Shown piece after piece: positions 5,819 to 14,668 of a stretch of 31,583 bases of DNA. A model generated the notes under the pieces. That model made no database searches and was not told the DNA's origin. It was given only the letters and a program-made list of their open reading frames with translations. The first letter of the stretch is position 1; every line of letters starts with the position of its first letter. The stretch comes from a virus (lineage: Duplodnaviria > Heunggongvirae > Uroviricota > Caudoviricetes). The stretch is from the IMG/VR virus record IMGVR_UViG_2802429219_000016; one strand, 5' to 3'. Position numbers and translations under genes: made by a program.

Positions 5819-6361
5819 ATGGTTGATGCAAAAGTTCTGAACGGTGTCAGCACATTATTACGCACTTACGGGCGTCTGACCTGTGGCGTTCTGGCTGAAA
5901 AAATGAAGATGCCACCTTCCTCAATGGTGTATTTCCTGCGTGATGCGGTTGATGCCGGAGTTCTCACTGAATGTAACGGATTTTATGACGTTCCGCGCCC
6001 TCGTCCGACGCCGCCGGTAAGACGAAACGCAACAACGGAACACCCCGATGTTGATGATGCTCAATGGTGCGCGTTCCGCCGCTCTTTGCCCTGGCTGGAA
6101 GGCAACGCCATTCCGGCACTGGCAAAAGAATTTGCGACAGGCGTACTGACCTGCGAGTCGGTTTACATTGTTGCTGAAGTGGATGACGAGATGTGCAAAC
6201 AGGGGATGCCCCGTTTTGTGATGGCTTATATCGATATCCGGCTGGGTCGTTTTATTTGTGGCTCCAGTGGCTGGAATATCACCGACCACGTCCTGCGCTA
6301 TCTCATTCTTGATTATTCACCGGTTCCGGCGGAAACACAGGAAATCAGCGAGCATGATTAA
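5819..6361 (+). CDS. Hypothetical protein, possible N-terminal winged-HTH (180 aa)
   Basis: ORF with AAGGA RBS; N-terminal LLRTYGRLTCGVLAEKMKMPPSSMVYFLRDAVDAGVL resembles a wHTH; rest unrecognised. Confidence 0.45.
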   Translation: MVDAKVLNGVSTLLRTYGRLTCGVLAEKMKMPPSSMVYFLRDAVDAGVLTECNGFYDVPRPRPTPPVRRNATTEHPDVDDAQWCAFRRSLPWLEGNAIPALAKEFATGVLTCESVYIVAEVDDEMCKQGMPRFVMAYIDIRLGRFICGSSGWNITDHVLRYLILDYSPVPAETQEISEHD

Positions 6362-6551
6362 GTCAATTGGCTTTGTCCTGCTGGTTGGCACTTGCGGGAA
6401 TGATGCCTGTGATGCCATTCCGGTAACAGAAAAAATCTGGCCCACAGAGCAGGCATGTATGCAGGTGATGGAGCGCATACAAAAACGTTATCCCAGTGAA
6501 ATCTTTTATTGCGAAGAGGTATTAAGAAATGAAAATACAGATGATTACTGA
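6354..6551 (+). CDS. Small Cys-containing protein with N-terminal hydrophobic signal/anchor (65 aa)
   Basis: MIKSIGFVLLVGTCGNDAC...: hydrophobic N-terminus followed by Cys (lipobox-like but non-canonical); four Cys in mature part; ATG overlaps upstream stop. Confidence 0.4.
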   Translation: MIKSIGFVLLVGTCGNDACDAIPVTEKIWPTEQACMQVMERIQKRYPSEIFYCEEVLRNENTDDY

Positions 6552-6864
6552 TGCTGATTTAATGGCTGCAACCTTAATTTCCAGTGGCATGTCAGAACAA
6601 AAGGTAAATGATTTCCTGGATAATGTCGTATACCAGCACTATGAGCAGGCCAGAGAAAATTTAATTTCAGAAAAGCGCACGATGATTGCTGAATCATTAA
6701 GCCCTGCATGGATTATCGAAGAGTTGCGGGGAATCATTGCCAGTCAGGATAAAGTGGCGGCAGTTGCCGCCCTCGATGTGCTACAGCGAATGAGTAAAGA
6801 GTTATTCAACACTGAATTAATTTTTAAATCCGGGGGACATAATGAGCCGCACATCCCTGATTAA
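6529..6864 (+). CDS. Hypothetical early protein (111 aa)
   Basis: ORF with GAGG RBS; no recognised domain. Confidence 0.45.
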   Translation: MKIQMITDADLMAATLISSGMSEQKVNDFLDNVVYQHYEQARENLISEKRTMIAESLSPAWIIEELRGIIASQDKVAAVAALDVLQRMSKELFNTELIFKSGGHNEPHIPD

Positions 6865-7393
6865 ATTAATTCATGTTGCCCGTCGGGAGTTGCAACTCGA
6901 CGATGACACTTACCGAGCTTTTCTGGTGCAGTGCACGGGCAAAACCAGTTGCCGCGAGCTGTCCGTTGCACAACTGGAACAGGTGCTCGATGCCATGAAA
7001 GAGCGCGGTTTTAAAAAGCAGAAAAAACATCCCCGCCGTCGCTTTAAGGGGCATGTCACACCACGCGAGAAGATTTACAAAATCTGGCAGCAGATGTTTC
7101 TTGACGGTTTCGTCTCCGATATCAGCGACGCTGCGCTGGACAAATACGTTGAGCGCCTGACAGCCAGACGTAATGGCGGACAGGGTGTTTCCACGCTGGC
7201 ATGGTGTCACGGGGAATCGTTGCAGATTGTGCTCGAAACGCTCAAACAGTGGCATATGCGCTGCATCCGGGAAGCCTTTGCCCGACATGGCGTGCCTTTA
7301 CCTGTGAGCGAAACCGGGCGGGAGCTGCGCGGCTATGATGCACTGACCAGTGCATATGCCCGCGCACGAAACAGCGGGAGAATTGCTGTATGA
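6842..7393 (+). CDS. gemA: GemA-like (Mu gp16 family) protein (183 aa)
   Basis: Position immediately upstream of and overlapping mor; size and basic composition consistent with Mu GemA/gp16 family (recollection). Confidence 0.65.
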   Translation: MSRTSLIKLIHVARRELQLDDDTYRAFLVQCTGKTSCRELSVAQLEQVLDAMKERGFKKQKKHPRRRFKGHVTPREKIYKIWQQMFLDGFVSDISDAALDKYVERLTARRNGGQGVSTLAWCHGESLQIVLETLKQWHMRCIREAFARHGVPLPVSETGRELRGYDALTSAYARARNSGRIAV

Positions 7394-7839
7394 AACAGAT
7401 GAAAGAGCAGGATTTGTTCGAAGACCTTCGGGACGACAGCGTTCTGGAATATCTTCATGATTACCAGGAAAACACCGCTTATCCGGCGTTACTTTCTGAA
7501 CTGAACGCACTGCTGCGTAAAGAGCTGGCCCGGATTGGAGCAGACCCTGCCCATTCCCTTGAGCTGGTTGTGGCGATTTGTCGCCATATCGGCGGGATGC
7601 AGGTTTATGTTCCGAGGGGGAATATTCTGGAGAATCTTGTCCGGGATATGCGTATCTGGCGTGATTTTAACGGCCATAATATTCCTGAACTGGTTCAGCG
7701 TTACGGGGTGACGTATAAAACCGTCTACAAGGCCATCAAACGGATGCGACGTCTGGAGCGTAATAAATACCAGCCGGATTTGTTTTACCCCTCCCCGAAC
7801 CTGCCTCACCCCGTTCGTCGCCCACCACGACGCCCTTAA
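7390..7839 (+). CDS. mor: Mor/C-family transcription activator (149 aa)
   Basis: DLFEDLRDDSVLEYL...ALLSELN.LLR.ELARIGADPAHSLELVVAICRHIGGMQVYVPRG...RDMRIW.DFNG.N..EL..RYGVTYKTVYKAIKRMRRL closely parallels Mu Mor including the C-terminal HTH. Confidence 0.8.
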   Translation: MKQMKEQDLFEDLRDDSVLEYLHDYQENTAYPALLSELNALLRKELARIGADPAHSLELVVAICRHIGGMQVYVPRGNILENLVRDMRIWRDFNGHNIPELVQRYGVTYKTVYKAIKRMRRLERNKYQPDLFYPSPNLPHPVRRPPRRP

Positions 7840-7844
7840 TCAAT

Positions 7845-7869
7845 GAAGCCGGTAAATCCGGCTTTTTTT
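7845..7869 (+). terminator. Intrinsic terminator-like hairpin plus T7 run downstream of mor
   Basis: GAAGCCGG-TAAAT-CCGGCTTTTTTT: 6-8 bp GC stem, 5-nt loop, seven T. Part of a 40-bp element repeated at 15561-15600. Confidence 0.5.
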
Positions 7870-7924
7870 ATGCCTCCGGCACCATGAAGCAGACCACGTT
7901 TAAATCTGCTTCACAGGTGCTTTT

Positions 7925-8521
7925 ATGGAAAATCAAAAATTCTCCCCGGCCTTTGAACATGCGCTGAATTTTATTCTGCGTCCTGATATCGAAGGCGGCT
8001 ATGTCAATGACCCCACTGACAGCGGCGGCGAAACAAAATACGGCATTTCTGACCGCCGCGACGGTGTGATTGACGGCAAAACCGATGTCAACGGCGACGG
8101 CAAACCGGATACCCGCATTAAGGATTTGACCCGCGAACAGGTTGCGCAGATTTACTGGCGCGATTACTGGCTGCTTGCCGGGTGTGATCAGTGGCCTGAT
8201 GGTGTGGCGCTCTTTGTGTTTGATGCGGCTGTTCAGCATGGCGTGGAGCAAGCCGTCAAGTTTTTACAGGAAGCCGCTGATGTGTCTGCCGATGGCATCA
8301 TCGGCCCGCGTACCCGCAAGGCTGTGAGCCTGTCCACCCCGGACTGGCTGCTGTCCCGCTGCATTGTTCGCCGTTGCCGCTTTTATGCGGGCCTCATCAA
8401 ATCAAAACCCGCTCGTGGCAAATACCTGAACGGCTGGTTTAACCGCATGGAAGAACTGACCGACGCCTGTCTGGAAATTATCGATACCCCTCTGGGCATC
8501 ATGTCCGCCACGCGGGGGTGA
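7925..8521 (+). CDS. Endolysin, GH108-type lysozyme with C-terminal peptidoglycan-binding region (198 aa)
   Basis: EGGYVNDPTDSGGETKYGIS catalytic motif typical of GH108; C-terminal ADGIIGPRTRKAV fits PG-binding domain; no N-terminal TM segment, so apparently not a SAR endolysin. Confidence 0.75.
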   Translation: MENQKFSPAFEHALNFILRPDIEGGYVNDPTDSGGETKYGISDRRDGVIDGKTDVNGDGKPDTRIKDLTREQVAQIYWRDYWLLAGCDQWPDGVALFVFDAAVQHGVEQAVKFLQEAADVSADGIIGPRTRKAVSLSTPDWLLSRCIVRRCRFYAGLIKSKPARGKYLNGWFNRMEELTDACLEIIDTPLGIMSATRG

Positions 8522-8522
8522 T

Positions 8523-8750
8523 ATGGGCAAAGGCTGGGATGCCTCACTGAAAGCCGGGCGGCGTGACCGCCTGCGCCAGGAGGTTCTGCACCGCATGGCC
8601 GGAGGTCCGCCCCCGAAACCGCTGGACTATACCGGCCATGATGGCACACACGCCAGCTACTACATGCGTGGCTGGAACTCCGTGGATACACGGGACATTT
8701 TCTGGCAGTGCCAGAAGTACAAGGAAAAACTCAATGCACAGAATGAATAG
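8523..8750 (+). CDS. Hypothetical protein in lysis module (75 aa)
   Basis: ATG 2 nt after endolysin stop; no recognised domain. Confidence 0.4.
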   Translation: MGKGWDASLKAGRRDRLRQEVLHRMAGGPPPKPLDYTGHDGTHASYYMRGWNSVDTRDIFWQCQKYKEKLNAQNE

Positions 8751-9144
8751 TCTTTTTGTTCGCGTTATTTACTCCCGCTTTATGTTGTGCCAGTGGTCGT
8801 TTCTGGGACTGTCGGCAGTACTTTTTCTGGCGAGCTGTTTTGCCGGATGGCGGGCGTTTGCGGTCATGGTGCTGGCATACGGCGCGACACTCTGCCTGAT
8901 TCACAGTTTCCAGCTGGGCAACGTACCTTATCGCCTGCAGCCCAAAAGGCGTTTCCGGGCCGCCTCCCTTCGAATTGTCGTGTGGTCATGGGTGGTCTGG
9001 GCCGTTGGTTTTTTCATGCTGACATTCGGCATTCTTTATCTGAAGGAGCCTTATCAGCTGGCGTTCTGGCTGGGCGGTATTTTTTGCGCGGCACTTTATA
9101 AACATCAGCGCCGTTTTCATAAGGGGGATTCATGGATCCGTTAA
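8734..9144 (+). CDS. Polytopic membrane protein, holin candidate (136 aa)
   Basis: About four hydrophobic segments; ATG 8734 with AAGGAAAAA RBS preferred over the in-frame upstream start at 8563. Confidence 0.45.
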   Translation: MHRMNSLFVRVIYSRFMLCQWSFLGLSAVLFLASCFAGWRAFAVMVLAYGATLCLIHSFQLGNVPYRLQPKRRFRAASLRIVVWSWVVWAVGFFMLTFGILYLKEPYQLAFWLGGIFCAALYKHQRRFHKGDSWIR

Positions 9145-9740
9145 CCCTTTCAGGCATCGCCTCTGTTCTGCTGAAAGCCGGGCCGGGGCTGATTCGTTCC
9201 GTCGGGCGCTGGTTTGGTGGCAGTACATCTGCCGCCGCTGACTCGGTGGCCGGTATGGTGGAAAGCGTCCGGGAAAGCCTGCCGGTGGCTGAACAGCAAC
9301 GCATTCTGGAACAAAAACTGGTGATGCTGTCACCGGAGCAACTGATGCAGCTGGAAACCCTGAAAGTTCAGCTGCAACAGCTGGAGGTGGAACGGCAGAA
9401 GCTGGTGCTGGCTGACCAGCAGGCCGCACACCACGAACAGCAGGAAACCATCCGCAATGGTGACAACGCCACGGACAGCTATGTGCGCCAGACACGCCCG
9501 CTGCTGGCCCGCCTTTCCTGTTACAGCAGTCTGGCCTATGTGCTGTTGCTCTCCTGCGGCCAGATTGCCGGAGCCATTGCCGGTGCCAGAGGTATTACGC
9601 TGCATATGCCATCACCGGACTGGGATATCACGCTGATGTTGCTTACCCCGGCGCTGGGCTATCTCGGTGTGCGAACCCTTGACGGCTTTGCCCGTTACAG
9701 CAAATCAAGCCGTCACAAAATGTCTGCGGGGCTGAAATGA
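9132..9740 (+). CDS. Membrane protein with N-terminal coiled coil and C-terminal TM segments (202 aa); lysis-associated
   Basis: Gln/Leu-rich heptad-like region (EQQRILEQKLVMLSPEQLMQLETLKVQLQQLEVERQKL) followed by hydrophobic stretches. Confidence 0.45.
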   Translation: MDPLTLSGIASVLLKAGPGLIRSVGRWFGGSTSAAADSVAGMVESVRESLPVAEQQRILEQKLVMLSPEQLMQLETLKVQLQQLEVERQKLVLADQQAAHHEQQETIRNGDNATDSYVRQTRPLLARLSCYSSLAYVLLLSCGQIAGAIAGARGITLHMPSPDWDITLMLLTPALGYLGVRTLDGFARYSKSSRHKMSAGLK

Positions 9741-9964
9741 CCGACGAAATCGATCGCATCAGTGAAGTGGTTTTGAACGAGCGTCAGAGCGTCGTTAAAG
9801 CCTGGCAGACACGGACAAAAGAAACGCCCCACAGCCGGGGCTTCTGCAATGACTGCGGGAACGTTATTCCGGCACAGCGCCTTGCGGCGCTGCCGGATGT
9901 GGTGACCTGTATTGACTGTCAGCAGATGCGGGAACGCAGGAGGAAAACGTGTCCTGGGAAATGA
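9737..9964 (+). CDS. TraR/DksA-family C4 zinc-finger protein (75 aa)
   Basis: C-x2-C-x17-C-x2-C (CNDCGNVIPAQRLAALPDVVTCIDCQ) and size typical of TraR / lambda Orf73 family. Confidence 0.7.
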   Translation: MTDEIDRISEVVLNERQSVVKAWQTRTKETPHSRGFCNDCGNVIPAQRLAALPDVVTCIDCQQMRERRRKTCPGK

Positions 9965-10254
9965 TCAGAGCCAACTGGCCCATTCTGTGGGCATTGCTGA
10001 TGACAGGAATAAACCTGCTTCAGTTGATTCTGGCAAAGACCTACGTCAAACGCGAAGAGTTTGATTTGCTGCGTTCCCGCGTGTCGGTGATGGAAAGCCA
10101 GGTACATCAGCTACCTGATCGTGATGAGTTCCACCGCCTGCAGCTGGATATCAGCAACCTGCGGGGAGAAATCAAAGAGCTGGGGCCATCCATCCGCCAG
10201 GTATCCCGCATCAGCGATTTGTTATTAGAGAACGAGTTAAAGGAAAAAAATTAA
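9949..10254 (+). CDS. Small N-terminally anchored membrane protein with coiled coil (101 aa); i-spanin-like architecture
   Basis: N-terminal TM (WPILWALLMTGINLLQLIL) then helical region; GTG start 5-6 nt after AGGAGG. Spanin role is inference from architecture only. Confidence 0.4.
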   Translation: MSWEMIRANWPILWALLMTGINLLQLILAKTYVKREEFDLLRSRVSVMESQVHQLPDRDEFHRLQLDISNLRGEIKELGPSIRQVSRISDLLLENELKEKN

Positions 10255-10547
10255 TGGCGATGAAAGAGATCCTCACTGAAGACCGTCGTCTGGTGTTGCT
10301 GCGTTCCCTGCTGGATTGTGGCGACAGTGCGAATGAATCCGTGTTGCAGACCTGCCTTCAGGCCTACGGTCATAAGGTATCCCGTGATGTGGTGCGCACC
10401 CAGCTTGCATGGCTGCGCGAGCAGGGGCTGGTTCGTCTGTCTGATGTGGGCGGCTGTTACGTGGCTGAAATCACCGGCAGCGGCGAGGATGTGGCAAACG
10501 GCCTGTCCAGCGTTCCGGGCGTTAAAAAACCCCGTGCGAGGGACTGA
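10254..10547 (+). CDS. Hypothetical protein (97 aa)
   Basis: Tightly coupled ORF between lysis and packaging genes; no recognised domain. Confidence 0.45.
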   Translation: MAMKEILTEDRRLVLLRSLLDCGDSANESVLQTCLQAYGHKVSRDVVRTQLAWLREQGLVRLSDVGGCYVAEITGSGEDVANGLSSVPGVKKPRARD

Positions 10548-10549
10548 GC

Positions 10550-10849
10550 ATGGCCCGAAAACTGAAGCCGTTAAGTCGCGGAGAACGGGCCGTCGTGCGG
10601 CAACTGGCGTACTGCCTTGTGCTGGCAGATATTGAGCAAAACGCCATTGTCCGTGCATACGAACAACAGACCGGAAAGCCCTGGAACCCGGATGCACCGG
10701 ATACCCCCATGAAACGTGCCCTGCGTTCATCACCGGCATGTGCGCGGCTGTGGAAGCTGCTGGGTAAGGATATCCGCTCCGTTCGCGAAGAAATATACGC
10801 CGGTCTGAAAACACCGGGAACTGAAGACGGGGGCCGTCGTGAACCGTAA
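10550..10849 (+). CDS. Hypothetical protein (99 aa)
   Basis: Tightly coupled ORF upstream of packaging genes; no recognised domain. Confidence 0.45.
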   Translation: MARKLKPLSRGERAVVRQLAYCLVLADIEQNAIVRAYEQQTGKPWNPDAPDTPMKRALRSSPACARLWKLLGKDIRSVREEIYAGLKTPGTEDGGRREP

Positions 10850-10986
10850 AAAGAATCCGATAAGTAAAGCGTCCCGTGATGAACTCCGCCGTCTGGCGCA
10901 CAACCTGACATGGCGGGAAATCCAGAGCGGCGCACTGAAATCTGCATACGAAAGTTTACAGCGTAGTGAGCAACAGGAGGGCACAC

Positions 10987-11568
10987 ATGGAAAATGAACA
11001 ACGCCCCACCCGTGGCCGTCTTTCCAAAGTGGATTTACTCCCGGACAGCATCCGGGAGCAGTTGCATCAGATGCTGCGGGAAAAGCGGCACACGCAGGAA
11101 GAAATCCGCGAAGCCATCAACGCCCTGATTGACGAACACAACCTGCCGGAAGAGATGCAGTTAAGCCGGACGGGCTTAAACCGCTATGCCATCCGCATGG
11201 AAAAAGTCGGGGCAAAAATCCGTGCCTCCCGCGAAATGGCCGAAGTCTGGGCGGCAAAGCTGGGTTCCGCGCCGACGTCAGACGTCGGCAAGCTGCTGAT
11301 GGAGTTTGTAAAAACGCTGGCTTTTGAAACGTCCATGTCGATGGCAGAAGACGACAAGCCCGTTGCACCGAAGGCGCTGGGGCAACTGGCGCTGGTTGCC
11401 CAGCGTCTGGAAGCGGCAGCCATGACCAGCCATAAACGCGAGAAAGCGATCCGCGATGCGTTTGCGCAGGAGATGGCAGAGAAAACCGAAGAACTGGTCA
11501 GAACGGGCGGTCTGTCAGGTGGTGCGGCTGACACCATCAAACGTGAAATTCTGGGGATTAGCGCATGA
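10987..11568 (+). CDS. Putative terminase small subunit (Mu gp27-like, DUF3486-type) (193 aa)
   Basis: Directly upstream of and overlapping the large terminase; AGGAGG RBS 6 nt before ATG 10987; family assignment from recollection. Confidence 0.5.
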   Translation: MENEQRPTRGRLSKVDLLPDSIREQLHQMLREKRHTQEEIREAINALIDEHNLPEEMQLSRTGLNRYAIRMEKVGAKIRASREMAEVWAAKLGSAPTSDVGKLLMEFVKTLAFETSMSMAEDDKPVAPKALGQLALVAQRLEAAAMTSHKREKAIRDAFAQEMAEKTEELVRTGGLSGGAADTIKREILGISA

Positions 11569-13100
11569 CACAAATGGACACGTTCAGTGAATATGATGTT
11601 CTGCTGCCGTATCAGAAACGCTGGGTGGCGGATGATGCCGACCTGAAAATCGCCGAGAAATCCCGCCGTACCGGTTTAACCTGGGCGGAGGCGGCAGATG
11701 CAGCACTGACAGCATCGCTGAAGAAGGAAGACGGCGGGCGCGATCACTTTTATATCGGTTCGAATAAGGAGATGGCCCGCGAATTTATCGACGCTGTGGC
11801 GATGTGGGCGAAAGCGTTTAATGCGGCAGCGGAAGAAATCTGCGAGGAAGTGATCACCGACGAAGACAAGGACATTCTGACGTTCGTCGTGTACTTCGCC
11901 AGCGGTTTTAAGGTCAAGGCACTGTCCAGCAACCCGAGCAACATTCGCGGGATGCAGGGGAATGTCACCATCGACGAGGCCGCGTTCCATGAAAAACTGG
12001 ACGAGCTGCTGAAGGCGGTGCTGCCGCTGAAAACATGGGGCGGCAAAATTCGCCTTATTTCCACCCATGACGGCGTGGACAACCTGTTTAACCAGCTGAT
12101 TCAGGAAAGCCGCGCGGGCAAAAAAGATTACAGCATTCACACCATCACGCTGGACGACGCCTGCAATGACGGGCTGTACCGACGTATCTGTCAGGTGCGC
12201 GGCATGGTGTGGTCACCGGAAGCCGAGGCGGAATGGAAAGAAGGCCTGCTGCGAAATACCGCCACCCGCGAAGACGCGCTGGAGGAGTATTACTGCGTCC
12301 CGAAAAACGGCGGCGGCACGTATATCCGCCGCTCACTGCGTGAACGTGCGGCCCGTGGCACCGGGAAAGTGTTGCGCTTTACCGGCACACCGGAATTTAA
12401 CGCACTGACGGAAAGCCAGCGTCGGGCAGATATCCGGGAATGGCTGGAAACAGTGGTGCGCCCTGAACTGGAAAAACTCCCGAAGAACCTGCGCCACTGT
12501 CTGGGGGAAGACTTTGCGCGTTCGGGTGACCTGACCGTACTGGCCCCGGTGACGGTGAACGATGACACCACCCGCGAGGTGCCGTTCCTGGTTGAGCTTG
12601 GCAATGTGCCGTTTAAACAGCAGGAGCAGGTGCTGTTCTGGCTTTGCGATCGTCTGCCCCGCCGTGACGGCATCAAAATGGATGCGCGGGGGAATGGTCA
12701 GTATCTGGCAGAACAGGCGGCAGAGCGGTACGGCGATGAAGTGGAACAGGTGATGCTGTCCGTGGCGTTTTACCGCGAAAACATGCCCCGTTTCCGTGCG
12801 GCGTTTGAAGATGATGAGCTGATCCTTCCGAAGCATGAAGACGTGATCAATGACCTCGGGGCCATTCAGTTACTGCGTGGCGTTCCCGGCATTGATGATT
12901 CACGAACCAGAGGCAGCGACGGTCACAAACGTCACGGCGACGCCGCTGTGGCCATTTTCCTGGGCTTCCTTGCCAGTAAAGATGACTGCCACCGTTACGA
13001 ACTGCATCGCCTGAACCGCCCGGCGAAACCGGAAGAACGCAACGCGCGCCGCCAGCTGAAGCTGACACGCGGCCTGAAAAATGAGGGAGGTTTACTGTGA
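11565..13100 (+). CDS. Terminase large subunit (511 aa)
   Basis: Size, position before portal, and Mu gp28-like sequence character. Confidence 0.8.
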   Translation: MTQMDTFSEYDVLLPYQKRWVADDADLKIAEKSRRTGLTWAEAADAALTASLKKEDGGRDHFYIGSNKEMAREFIDAVAMWAKAFNAAAEEICEEVITDEDKDILTFVVYFASGFKVKALSSNPSNIRGMQGNVTIDEAAFHEKLDELLKAVLPLKTWGGKIRLISTHDGVDNLFNQLIQESRAGKKDYSIHTITLDDACNDGLYRRICQVRGMVWSPEAEAEWKEGLLRNTATREDALEEYYCVPKNGGGTYIRRSLRERAARGTGKVLRFTGTPEFNALTESQRRADIREWLETVVRPELEKLPKNLRHCLGEDFARSGDLTVLAPVTVNDDTTREVPFLVELGNVPFKQQEQVLFWLCDRLPRRDGIKMDARGNGQYLAEQAAERYGDEVEQVMLSVAFYRENMPRFRAAFEDDELILPKHEDVINDLGAIQLLRGVPGIDDSRTRGSDGHKRHGDAAVAIFLGFLASKDDCHRYELHRLNRPAKPEERNARRQLKLTRGLKNEGGLL

Positions 13101-14668
13101 ACCTGAAACAACTGGCCGGGGCCGTTCGCCATCTGCTGAACCCGGCAACCGGTGAGGAAGACACGCTGAAAAAAGAGGCGCTCAACGAAGCACAGGCCCG
13201 TCCGCGTCATGCCGGTGTGCGTTCGGCCTCGCCGGGTATCAGCGTCGCCTCCGGGCTGACCCCCGGCAGGCTGGCAGGCATTCTGCGCAATGCTACTGAC
13301 GGCATCACGCGTGATTTTTTTATCCTTGCTGAAGAGATGGAAGAACGCGATTTGCATTACGCCTCGGTACTGCGCACCCGCAAGCTGACGGTGGCGGGTA
13401 TCGAACCGGTGGTGGTGGCCGCCAGTGATGACGATGCTGACGTGCAACTGGCGGACGCCATCCGTGCACTGATGGAGGCACCGCAAATCCCTGAGCTGAT
13501 GTTTGATCTGCTCGACGGGCTGGGAAAAGGCGTGGCGGTCTGTGAAATTTTGTGGAACACCCGCAACAACCACTGGGTGCCCCGTGATTATGAGTGGGTT
13601 GATCCCCGTTTTCTGAAAGCCGAAAAGCCCACGCTGCGCCAGTTCCGCCTGCTGACAGACGATGAACCGGTGGATGGTGTACCGCTGACACCGGGAAAAT
13701 TCATTGTTCACCAGCCGCGCCTGAAATCCGGTTTGCCGCTGCGTAACGGTCTGGCCCGTCTGGTGGCGGTAATGTACATGCTGAAATCCTTTACCGTGCG
13801 CGACTGGTGGGCATTTGCGGAAAAATTCGGCATTCCGGTCACGGTGGGGAAATACGGTCCCAACGCCACGGAGGAACAAATCCGCGTGCTGATTGATGCG
13901 ATTGCGTCCATTGCCTCGGATGCCGGGTGTGCCATTCCGCAGTCCATGCAACTGGAGATGAAGGAAACCGCCAGCCGGAATAACGGCGGCGCACTGTTCC
14001 GTGAAATGGCGGAATGGTGTGATGCGCAAATCAGTAAAGCCGTGCTGGGGCAGACCATGACCACGGATAACGGCAGTTCGCGCTCACAGGCGGACGTGCA
14101 CAATCAGGTGCGTATGGACATTGTGCGCTGGGACGCGCGGCAGCTGGCTAACACGCTGAATGAATATCTGGTGCGCCCCTACATCGAGGCCAATTACGGG
14201 CCACAGGAACACTATCCCCGTGTTGTTCTGCGTATCAGTGAAGCAGAAGATCTGAAGGCGCTGACAGATGCTCTGGTGCCGCTGATTGACCGGGGGATGC
14301 GGGTTCAGGAATCGGAGCTGCGGGACCGGTTCGGCCTGGCTGAACCGGACGACGGGGCTGATGTTCTGCATCCGGTGTCTGCCGGAATGTCAGGTGATGT
14401 GGCGATGAACCGCGAGCGCGTCGCCCTGAACCGGGAACACCCCGATGAACTGGCACAGATGGTGGATGATGCCCTGCGTGACTGGCAGAAAACCGGCGAG
14501 GCGTTCACGAACCCGGTGCTGACACTGGCGCAGGAATGCGACAGTTTTGATGACTTTCTGAAACGCCTGCCTGAGCTTCAGGAAACGCTGAACGCGGACG
14601 ACTTTGCCCTGCAACTGGCGGAGGTGTGCTTTAAGGCGCGTGCGCTGGGGGACACCGGTCATGCGTGA
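13097..14668 (+). CDS. H: Portal protein, Mu gp29 (H) family (523 aa)
   Basis: GTG start after GGGAGG RBS, overlaps terminase stop; size and order typical of Mu-like portal. Confidence 0.8.
   Translation: MNLKQLAGAVRHLLNPATGEEDTLKKEALNEAQARPRHAGVRSASPGISVASGLTPGRLAGILRNATDGITRDFFILAEEMEERDLHYASVLRTRKLTVAGIEPVVVAASDDDADVQLADAIRALMEAPQIPELMFDLLDGLGKGVAVCEILWNTRNNHWVPRDYEWVDPRFLKAEKPTLRQFRLLTDDEPVDGVPLTPGKFIVHQPRLKSGLPLRNGLARLVAVMYMLKSFTVRDWWAFAEKFGIPVTVGKYGPNATEEQIRVLIDAIASIASDAGCAIPQSMQLEMKETASRNNGGALFREMAEWCDAQISKAVLGQTMTTDNGSSRSQADVHNQVRMDIVRWDARQLANTLNEYLVRPYIEANYGPQEHYPRVVLRISEAEDLKALTDALVPLIDRGMRVQESELRDRFGLAEPDDGADVLHPVSAGMSGDVAMNRERVALNREHPDELAQMVDDALRDWQKTGEAFTNPVLTLAQECDSFDDFLKRLPELQETLNADDFALQLAEVCFKARALGDTGHA

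Follow-up and report, generated by a model that had tools for sequence, protein, structure and literature searches.

Between the endolysin gene and the terminase genes of a Mu-like E. coli prophage lies a run of small genes, most of them annotated as hypothetical proteins, and the question was which of these, if any, release the endolysin and open the cell envelope. An earlier note, made from the DNA letters, had found several membrane proteins here, but no canonical holin or o-spanin, and had left the holin, spanin and releasin roles open. We analysed the whole stretch of 31,583 nucleotides (the window) and established the gene content, family memberships, synteny and predicted topologies of the region 8523–10849, which is part of the late lysis-to-packaging operon of the prophage. 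We consider it reasonably likely that this is a late operon with C202 as the holin, B136 as its modulator, E101 kept as part of a Mu-wide module and no spanin. The region would then be the first part of the late operon, consisting of a lysis cassette followed by conserved gp24-gp25-gp26-like genes ahead of the terminase. Transmembrane (TM) segments were in every case predicted solely from hydropathy.

All seven ORFs that had been listed between the endolysin and the terminase were present on the plus strand, and RefSeq/PGAP calls the same genes in prophages of 93–97% identity; of 5426 complete E. coli genomes, 46 contained such a prophage. The block gave no megablast match in the GenBank phage collection. 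An eighth ORF, H52, was found between G99 and the gene of the small terminase subunit (TerS). Every junction from the endolysin gene (lys) to the gene of TerL was an overlap or a gap of no more than 2 nt; therefore, the ORFs form one late operon, starting after the terminator at 7845–7865. This hairpin is located directly 3' of the Mor-family gene, in the same arrangement as the Mu terminator before Plys; it resembles an intrinsic terminator and marks where the early/middle transcript ends. The late promoter presumably lies in 7866–7924, and expression of the operon probably depends on a promoter activated by Mor. Around the block, the backbone was Mu-like (gp16/GemA, Mor, gp27, gp28 and portal). 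The start of TerS given in the table follows PGAP in the relatives; it would be 10966 if the longest ORF were taken.

Table. Features of the lysis-to-packaging region, in positions of the window
Feature	Position	Strand	Description	Evidence
Hairpin	7845..7865	+	terminator-like hairpin with T-run	8-bp stem, 5 GC pairs, TTTTTTT tail
Endolysin (lys)	7925..8521	+	GH108 muramidase with PG_binding_3	PF05838, 84.8 bits; PF09374, 58.2 bits; phrog_315 (endolysin)
A75	8523..8750	+	small soluble three-helix protein	homologues carry precomputed PF26867
B136	8734..9144	+	inner-membrane protein, about 4 TM, N-in/C-in	hydropathy
C202	9132..9740	+	probable holin, TeaA / GTA_holin_3TM family	phrog_1544, PF11351, Foldseek, AF2, synteny
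D75	9737..9964	+	TraR/DksA-family C4 zinc finger	PF01258, 42.3 bits (cut-off 24.9)
E101	9949..10254	+	DUF2730, homologue of Mu gp25 releasin	PF10805, 105.6 bits (cut-off 24.9)
F97	10254..10547	+	Mu gp26 orthologue, winged-helix, VpaChn25_0724 family	NF050184, 122.2 bits (cut-off 65)
G99	10550..10849	+	small protein of basic pI (9.9), in a second variable slot ahead of TerS	phrog_8988
H52	10839..10997	+	short basic ORF	phrog_8988, positions 1–39
TerS	10987..11568	+	small terminase subunit, Mu gp27 family	PF11985, 185 bits; phrog_426

By hydropathy, the N-terminus of the endolysin (MENQKFSPAFEHALNF...) had no hydrophobic segment, signal peptide or SAR domain (maximum KD 1.03). The protein resembled the NCBIfam model 'holin-associated N-acetylmuramidase' at 76 bits, under the 240-bit cut-off of that model. 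Lacking an export signal, such an enzyme would build up in the cytoplasm. Because the GH108 endolysin has neither a signal nor a SAR domain, C202, whose gene lies two small genes 3' of lys in the same operon, is likely to be the holin. We propose that C202 gathers in the inner membrane and that the resulting lesion would release the endolysin. In agreement with the earlier note, which had seen no canonical holin, no ORF matched a Phage_holin_* family of Pfam, and the PHROGs matched by the ORFs of the block were all annotated 'unknown function'. One of these hypothetical proteins is named TatA/TatE in RefSeq, which is a misnomer.

In C202, the N-terminal segment is Gly-rich and amphipathic (..RWFGG) and is followed by a helical domain, a pair of C-terminal TM helices and a basic tail; the coiled coil with a C-terminal TM segment seen earlier corresponds to the long helical region and the TM hairpin. 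The full length of C202 (1–199) matched phrog_1544 with an E-value of 1.3e-59, and TeaA (ORF137) of phage ICP1 matched it over 5–181 with an E-value of 1.7e-53. By sequence, C202 thus belongs to the same family as TeaA, an experimentally characterised holin. The direct similarity between the two proteins was weak and mainly N-terminal (BLAST E 0.004; hhalign probability 78.5%; HMM 21.9 bits). Since ICP1 ORF137 gave no direct PF11351 match in Pfam, the link to TeaA is made by phrog_1544 together with the remote-homology result in the TeaA paper. C202 itself scored 20.4 bits against PF11351 (E 7.8e-4), below the gathering score of 24.8, and PF11351 (GTA_holin_3TM) was matched at E <= 0.01 by 34 of the 78 members of the C202 family, with a best E-value of 8.4e-9; judged by these profile matches, C202 may be a distant branch of GTA_holin_3TM. 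The AF2 model of C202 had a pLDDT of 92, and its top Foldseek match in BFVD was named 'Holin of 3TMs' (E 2.7e-7). Across the 78 members, the net charge was +2.3 before the first TM segment, -0.9 in the inter-TM loop and +3.2 in the tail. C202 is predicted to have both ends in the cytoplasm, with a cytoplasmic helical domain of approximately 125 residues and a periplasmic loop of approximately 9 residues.

The gene neighbourhoods of C homologues also pointed to a lysis function. A peptidoglycan hydrolase gene was located directly upstream of the C homologue in about 40 of 65 non-redundant non-Mu viral loci; these hydrolases span at least five families, and the phages are unrelated. Phages LP.1 and Donnerlittchen likewise have a C homologue directly 3' of the endolysin gene. 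The plaque-forming Vibrio phage 1.028.O (31.6 kb) also has a soluble GH108-type endolysin, and its C homologue and DUF2730 protein were its only convincing membrane proteins. Another small membrane protein was encoded near the C homologue in 45 of 67 non-Mu loci, five of these proteins being recognisable class II holins, and C-family proteins may sometimes be partners and not the sole holin. Some enterobacterial relatives encode a 3-TM protein of 103–110 amino acids upstream of lys, which was not found in the window. Taken together, these results indicated that C202 is probably the holin.

Hydropathy showed four hydrophobic segments in B136, which agreed with the roughly 4-TM protein described before. 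The stop codon region of its gene overlaps the start of C202 by 13 nt. Homologues of B136 were found in only 13 clusters, all enterobacterial, and in 80 relatives the corresponding slot contained B-like proteins, unrelated proteins with 3–5 TM segments, or nothing. The slot proteins of relatives had no match of known function in Pfam or PHROGs. P2 LysA, which is annotated as affecting lysis timing, and Mu gp19, the product of a middle gene with no demonstrated lysis role, resemble B136 in size and in the predicted 4-TM N-in/C-in topology; no significant alignment of B136 was obtained with these two or with ICP1 ArrA. From this genomic setting, B136 is a candidate holin modulator (antiholin): a fast-evolving protein, translationally coupled to C202 and encoded in a slot that is dispensable in relatives, which most likely sets the timing of the holin. 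ArrA, whose gene adjoins that of TeaA in ICP1, would be a precedent for this role, the analogy of B136 to known antiholins being limited to position (next to and overlapping the holin gene) and polytopic topology.

E101 is the product of the fifth gene downstream of lys, and its residues 4–98 covered positions 1–102 of the 102 positions of the PF10805 model; identity with Mu gp25 was 27% (E 5e-12). Hydropathy placed one TM segment at residues 10–30, followed by KTYVKRE, which puts the positive side inside, and by a helical region, in accordance with the N-anchored coiled-coil protein noticed previously. From the charge bias and the family description, we infer that an N-terminal TM segment (N-out/C-in) tethers a cytoplasmic coiled coil. 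E101 cannot act as gp25 does in Mu because the endolysin here has no SAR anchor; E101 is therefore a member of the DUF2730 family, but not a 'releasin' in the Mu sense. Together, E101, D75 and F97 are retained as a Mu-wide module. Here E101 might help to depolarise the membrane or to trigger the holin. D75 contains four Cys residues (CNDC...CIDC) and also matched TIGR02419 (62.3 bits; cut-off 59.7). It occupies the position of Mu gp24, which likewise has a CxxC...CxxC pattern, and BLAST gave no similarity between the two proteins. F97 was 61% identical to Mu gp26 (E 2e-42).

The earlier note had counted two soluble unknowns in the block; there were in fact four soluble proteins (A75, D75, F97 and G99) in addition to H52, and two of the four belong to clear families. 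A75 is kept right behind the endolysin gene throughout this group of Mu-like phages. Its homologues are 64–87 amino acids long, every one with a precomputed PF26867 assignment, and it was 31% identical to the product of the gene at the same position in Vibrio phage 1.028.O. The AF2 model of A75 had a pLDDT of 84, and a fold search with it gave no informative match. Phrog_2121 spans both A and C, and a fusion of the two was considered and rejected; none of the A75 homologues was fused to C. A single A-B fusion of 176 amino acids (P0283) exists and is probably a frameshift or annotation artefact. G99 was present in most, not all, relatives. H52 was present only in some, being annotated in close ones, and its N-terminus is paralogous to G99 (39% identity over 38 amino acids, E 4e-8). 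Neither G99 nor H52 showed similarity to TerS or to solved structures in the PDB.

To look for spanins, the window was scanned for lipoboxes in all frames and from all start codons, with settings tuned to recover Mu gp23.1 and P2 LysC. Over the entire window, the coding strand gave no o-spanin lipoprotein, as had been claimed; the only hits were within in-frame TM segments of B136 and C202. Both were rejected as lipoproteins, the LASC motif of B136 (C35), considered as an o-spanin, as well as the LLSC motif behind an internal start of C202, since neither Cys is conserved in homologues. In a prophage of 97% identity, the right end contained only tail fibre, com and mom genes. Judged by predicted topologies, none of the ORFs encoded an i-spanin, that is, an N-in/C-out protein with a periplasmic coiled coil; E101 and C202 cannot be i-spanins, given that their helical domains are predicted to lie in the cytoplasm. 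No ORF with a conserved lipobox was found for a u-spanin of the T1 gp11 type, and the first 128 residues of C202 are free of Cys. As no lipoprotein ORF and no protein able to span the periplasm was found, the phage appears to have no spanin. A wider claim, which we regard as unlikely, would be that the widespread Mu-like group with a GH108 endolysin, a TeaA-like holin, DUF2730 and no spanin lyses Gram-negative cells without any periplasm-spanning part, and that disruption of the outer membrane, or the timing of lysis, would depend on A75/PF26867, B136 or an action of DUF2730 on a holin in place of a SAR endolysin.

The assignment of the holin role to C202 has to be weighed against two other proteins of the cassette. 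E101 might permeabilise or depolarise the inner membrane together with soluble endolysins, which would leave C202 as a regulator or accessory protein. Regardless of the type of endolysin, every Mu-like phage has a conserved DUF2730 gene within five genes of the endolysin gene; Vibrio phage 1.028.O has only one other membrane protein besides its DUF2730 protein, and Mu gp25 is needed for lysis. However, Mu gp25 did not behave as a holin (no lethality after DNP), and large holes are not known to be formed by a single N-out/C-in TM segment that carries a cytoplasmic coiled coil. It is the C family that includes an experimentally shown holin, TeaA, and whose genes come after endolysin genes in phages lacking DUF2730 as well, and we regard a hole-forming E101 as quite unlikely. 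B136 could also be the true holin or a second one, with C202 as its antiholin or partner. Yet active Vibrio and Shewanella Mu-like phages and approximately 7–9 of the 80 enterobacterial relatives have no B136 while all keep lys-A-C, and B136 matched no holin family, which makes this reading improbable even though B136 is a small polytopic protein of the lysis cassette, is translationally coupled to C202 and has a slot that nearly always contains a 3–5 TM protein in enterobacterial relatives. The MHRM dual-Met N-terminus of B136 recalls dual-start holins, but the motif was not conserved in the Klebsiella version.

There are two further explanations. B136, and possibly G99 and H52, may be cargo, that is, superinfection-exclusion or host-modulating morons with no part in lysis or packaging. 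Genes that are narrowly distributed, diverge fast and give way to unrelated ones in the same slots, together with the presence/absence polymorphism of G99 and H52, are as expected for cargo, and we give this explanation some weight while considering it somewhat unlikely. Against it, no separate promoter was detected, and the B136 gene always overlaps the start of C202. Moreover, whatever occupies the slot is a polytopic membrane protein in every case, and this points to a functional class under constraint and linked to the membrane protein C202. It is highly improbable that C202 substitutes for spanins by acting on the outer membrane, although this would explain both its position after the endolysin and the absence of a spanin. 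In Donnerlittchen and many environmental phages, a small TM protein gene, the endolysin gene and the C homologue follow one another, with C in the usual spanin position, and the neighbourhood of C homologues showed no enrichment of lipobox ORFs (10 of 77 loci, compared with 26 of 77 in the opposite-strand control). Nevertheless, the helical domain of C202 is cytoplasmic by charge and its periplasmic loop has approximately 9 residues; therefore, it cannot reach the outer membrane. Moreover, TeaA acts as a holin and rcc00556 is regarded as the RcGTA holin. We thus retain C202 as the probable holin and B136 as its candidate modulator.

Most of the 'unassigned' genes here belong to known families. 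Clear homology to characterised families was found for E101, C202, D75 and F97, and to call the holin and releasin roles open, as the earlier note did, is too simple, given that E101 is a DUF2730 protein, that C202 shares phrog_1544 with TeaA and that the family of C202 overlaps GTA_holin_3TM. The RefSeq 'hypothetical proteins' become one coherent lysis cassette, and a probable holin can be named for the Mu-like phages flagged by Chamblee et al. as combining DUF2730 with cytoplasmic endolysins. The question is sharpened to what DUF2730 does without a SAR endolysin and how the outer membrane is handled without spanins. If lysis is truly spanin-less, this E. coli prophage would be a tractable system for a general, non-SAR function of DUF2730. 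The cassette leaves current models of phage lysis unchallenged; it adds an ordinary representative to known kinds, and the questions that it raises are modest and concern the missing spanin and a few small lineage-specific genes.

The late lysis region of Mu encodes the SAR endolysin gp22, the spanins gp23/gp23.1, gp24, the releasin gp25, gp26 and the TerS gp27, and gp25 acts on a SAR endolysin whose release requires it because of N-terminal cytoplasmic Lys residues (Chamblee et al. 2022, PMC9239132). Mu and the prophage share the order of a Mor-family activator, a terminator, an endolysin, variable genes, a Cys4 protein, DUF2730, a gp26 homologue, TerS and TerL. They differ in that the Mu endolysin is a SAR lysozyme whereas that of the prophage is a soluble GH108 enzyme, and in that Mu has no holin whereas the prophage has a TeaA-family candidate. 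The block was correctly described as larger than that of Mu, but Mu has five CDS, counting gp23.1, between lys and gp27, and not four; the prophage block exceeds it because A75-B136-C202 replaces the Mu spanin pair gp23/gp23.1 and because two small genes absent from Mu, G99 and H52, are inserted before TerS. For the Vibrio phages of the 1.028.O type, Chamblee et al. had already listed the combination of DUF2730 and a non-SAR GH108 endolysin (PMC9239132). These phages and Shewanella phage MuM16-2, which are Mu-like myophages with a GH108 endolysin and DUF2730, have an orthologous lys-A-C-D-E-F-TerS order (identity of 40% for lys, 31% for A and 39% for C); they differ from the prophage in having no B136, G99 or H52 and in encoding a secreted protein of approximately 150 amino acids between Mor and lys, which is absent from the window. 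In RcGTA, the endolysin rcc00555 and the holin rcc00556 are needed for release (PMC5026251). This pair resembles that of the prophage in combining a muramidase with a membrane protein, which is of the PF11351 type in RcGTA and scores below the gathering score of that family in the case of C202; rcc00556 is the founder of PF11351, and its likeness to C202 is through the family model. ICP1 is a large lytic myophage and has no Mu backbone, and it encodes TeaA, experimentally shown to be a holin, and the antiholin ArrA (Hays & Seed 2020, PMC7182436). TeaA and C202, both of phrog_1544, have the same architecture, in which an N-terminal segment with ..WFGG is followed by a helical domain and a C-terminal pair of TM segments, and in both ICP1 and the prophage the gene of a polytopic membrane protein is located immediately upstream of the holin gene or, here, the candidate holin gene.

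Most genes of the block between the endolysin and terminase genes belong to known kinds, in that C202, E101, D75, and F97 could be assigned to families. The block lies in a Mu-like transposable prophage of Escherichia coli; prophages of 46 among 5426 complete E. coli genomes matched its 3.1 kb at 93–97% identity, and no GenBank phage record matched it at the DNA level. The seven ORFs listed in the earlier note are all present, with an identical PGAP annotation in relatives, and the hydropathy of B136, C202, and E101 was as described there; H52, located between G99 and TerS, was an eighth ORF. Each junction from lys to TerL was an overlap or a gap of ≤2 nt, a good intrinsic-terminator-like hairpin was located 3' of the Mor gene, and no sigma-70-like promoter was found inside the block. 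These features indicated that the block forms the 5' portion of a single late operon.

Features of the lysis-to-packaging region and of related loci
Feature	Positions	Strand	Description
65-aa ORF	6354-6551	+	inside longer ORF 6258-6551; MIKSIGFVLLVGTCGNDAC...
gp16/GemA	6842-7393		flanking gene
Mor-family activator	7390-7839		flanking gene
Mor–endolysin interval	7840-7924		85-bp gap
Terminator-like hairpin	7845-7865		within the gap
lys	7925-8521	+	endolysin
A75	8523-8750	+	homologues carry PF26867
B136	8734-9144	+	four hydrophobic segments
C202	9132-9740	+	predicted holin
D75	9737-9964	+	TraR-type C4 zinc finger
E101	9949-10254	+	DUF2730
F97	10254-10547	+	Mu gp26 homologue
G99	10550-10849	+	slot 2 protein
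H52	10839-10997	+	paralogue of G99
TerS	from 10987	+	Mu gp27 family; flanking gene
TerL			flanking gene
Portal			flanking gene
3-TM protein, 103-110 aa	L037:1878-2210, L038:2161-2484, L083:1927-2238		Mor–endolysin gap of relatives
Secreted protein, 160-178 aa	L014:1695-2192, L034:1703-2215		Mor–endolysin gap of relatives
C202 homologue WP_032239570.1	L002:3733-4341		RefSeq name discussed in the text
ICP1 teaA surroundings	HQ641347 (L171) 12541-14097	-	ORF136–ORF139

The earlier note had left the holin and releasin roles open; this no longer holds for C202 and E101, both of which have homology to characterised proteins. C202, in which hydropathy showed a helical region followed by a TM hairpin at the C-terminus, is a predicted holin on the basis of this homology. 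Both C202 and TeaA, the holin of phage ICP1 (ORF137), matched phrog_1544 end to end (E = 1.3e-59 and 1.7e-53, respectively), and the direct similarity of the two proteins was weak and chiefly N-terminal, which suggested that they are distant members of one superfamily. TeaA was tied by its authors to the Pfam family GTA_holin_3TM by remote homology (PMC7182436). C202 itself matched PF11351 slightly under the gathering score, and 34 of the 78 aligned members of its family matched it, with a best E-value of 8.4e-9; an exhaustive search yielded 134 clusters of C202 homologues. The AlphaFold model of C202 built from the 78-member alignment was confident (pLDDT 92); of all viral models it was matched best by one named "Holin of 3TMs, for gene-transfer release" (E = 2.7e-7). 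PF11351 has RcGTA rcc00556 as its founder; lysis and GTA release require both this protein and the endolysin rcc00555 (PMC5026251). One C202 homologue (WP_032239570.1) is named "twin-arginine translocase TatA/TatE family subunit" in RefSeq, probably a misannotation caused by the Gly-rich amphipathic N-terminus. phrog_2121 (284 positions), which matched the ORFs of A75, B136, and C202, spans A75 (positions 3–75) and C202 (positions 91–273) as though both formed a single protein; A75 homologues included no A–C fusion, and one A–B fusion is known (P0283, 176 aa).

Genes for C202 homologues were found directly 3' of the endolysin gene in unrelated phages, such as Vibrio phage LP.1 (after a GH108 endolysin) and Janthinobacterium phage Donnerlittchen (after a holin and an L,D-endopeptidase). 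Across 65 non-redundant environmental viral loci, the immediately preceding gene encoded GH108 (12), Peptidase_M15_4 (12), Phage_lysozyme (6), Peptidase_M15_3 (6), VanY (3), CHAP (1), or GH19 (1). Such varied chemistries among the partner hydrolases favour a general role of the family in lysis over one tied to a particular enzyme. In the complete genome of Vibrio phage 1.028.O, the C202 homologue and a DUF2730 protein were the sole convincing membrane proteins and the endolysin had no signal; since gp25, the DUF2730 founder, does not act as a holin in Mu (PMC9239132), the C202 homologue is by elimination the candidate holin of this phage. Another small membrane protein was encoded nearby in 45 of 67 non-Mu loci, five of them recognisable as class II holins, and C-family proteins may thus work with partners in some phages.

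E101 was a full-length DUF2730 protein (105.6 bits) and so belongs to the releasin family; Mu gp25, the founder of that family, frees the SAR endolysin of Mu (PMC9239132). The endolysin of the window comprised GH108 and PG_binding_3 and had no hydrophobic N-terminus, so that E101 cannot act as in Mu. Chamblee et al. remarked on the same class of Mu-like phages, the Vibrio phages of the 1.028.O type included (PMC9239132).

The failure of the earlier note to find an o-spanin was borne out. In the 78 C202 homologues, the net charge was +2.3 in the segment that precedes the hairpin's first TM, -0.9 in the inter-TM loop of about nine residues, and +3.2 in the tail, and this pattern suggested that both hairpin ends and the 125-residue helical domain would be cytoplasmic. 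E101 had one N-terminal TM only, and its coiled coil is predicted to be cytoplasmic by the DUF2730 family topology; the loops of B136 were short. On these predicted topologies, no block protein has a periplasm-spanning domain. All frames and all start codons were scanned for lipoboxes, with settings tuned to recover Mu gp23.1 and P2 LysC. Across the whole window, the coding strand yielded no lipoprotein ORF except two in-frame TM segments in which the Cys was not conserved, and a whole Vibrio phage genome yielded none. At its right end, a 97%-identical prophage had only tail fibre, com, and mom genes. From the topologies, the scans, and the right-end gene content, we concluded that the phage appears to have neither a canonical two-component nor a unimolecular spanin. 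In the C-gene neighbourhoods of environmental viral contigs (L091–L170), small lipobox ORFs were not enriched (the coding strand had them in 10 of 77 loci, the opposite-strand control in 26 of 77), which hints that phages with a C-type holin often have no spanin beside the cassette. A 65-aa ORF in the early region, distant from the lysis genes, had an N-terminus resembling a signal peptide, a lipobox of atypical form (VGTC), and four more Cys; it matched phrog_16556, was kept in relatives, and was not accompanied by an i-spanin partner. A small cargo gene for a secreted protein or a lipoprotein is a likelier reading of this ORF than an o-spanin.

The N-terminus, central loop, and C-terminus of B136 were strongly basic, from which an N-in/C-in topology is predicted. 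No family annotation was found for B136, and it had no similarity to Mu gp19, P2 LysA, or ICP1 ArrA. In ICP1, the polytopic antiholin ArrA is encoded next to teaA, and by analogy with this precedent the most economical guess would be that B136, beside C202, is a holin modulator. A serious alternative is that B136 is a cargo gene, for example for superinfection exclusion; its homologues formed only 13 clusters, all enterobacterial. The end of the B136 gene invariably overlaps the C202 start, which accounts for the WIR/WIQ C-terminus common to unrelated proteins in the same slot. B136 begins with MHRM (8734-8745). Further Met residues are at codons 4 and 17, the latter being the start used in phrog_12596 and in some database entries; a dual-start arrangement is possible, and this feature was conserved in E. 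coli versions and not in the Klebsiella version. In gammaproteobacterial Mu-like phages, A75 was conserved alongside lys and C; it was modelled as three helices, with uninformative structural neighbours.

The 80 enterobacterial relatives all had the order lys-A-[slot 1]-C-D-E-F-[slot 2]-TerS. Slot 1 held B136-like proteins, unrelated 3–5 TM proteins of about 129–136 aa, or nothing, and slot 2 was empty or held G, G plus H, or G with an unrelated 126-aa protein. A minimal orthologous module, lys-A-C-D-E-F-TerS, is present in Shewanella phage MuM16-2 and in the plaque-forming Vibrio phages of 1.028.O type. G99 and H52 were N-terminal paralogues (39% identity over 38 aa); H52 resembles a truncated duplicate of G99 and occurred only in some otherwise near-identical prophages, through an indel of about 170 bp. 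In many relatives, an additional gene separated Mor from the endolysin and encoded either a holin-sized protein (phrog_36430) or a secreted one, at the place where the window has only a short gap with the terminator.

In Mu, the order is lys, gp23, gp23.1, gp24, gp25, gp26, gp27, and the succession of terminator and lys in the window resembles the terminator, Plys, and lys of Mu. F97 showed 61% identity with Mu gp26, and E101 showed 27% with gp25. D75, a TraR-type C4 zinc finger, occupies the position of gp24, also a small protein with CxxC...CxxC, and BLAST similarity between the two was absent. This gene-by-gene comparison indicated that the expansion relative to Mu has two sources: A75-B136-C202 in the place of the spanin pair, and G99 and H52 inserted before TerS. 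The surroundings of teaA in ICP1 mirror the architecture of the window: ORF139, an N-terminal-TM coiled-coil protein of DUF2730-like shape (similarity not significant, E = 3.8), would correspond to E101, the polytopic ArrA (ORF138) to B136, TeaA to C202, and ORF136, a small Cys-rich protein, to D75. This likeness could be due to convergence or to very remote common ancestry.
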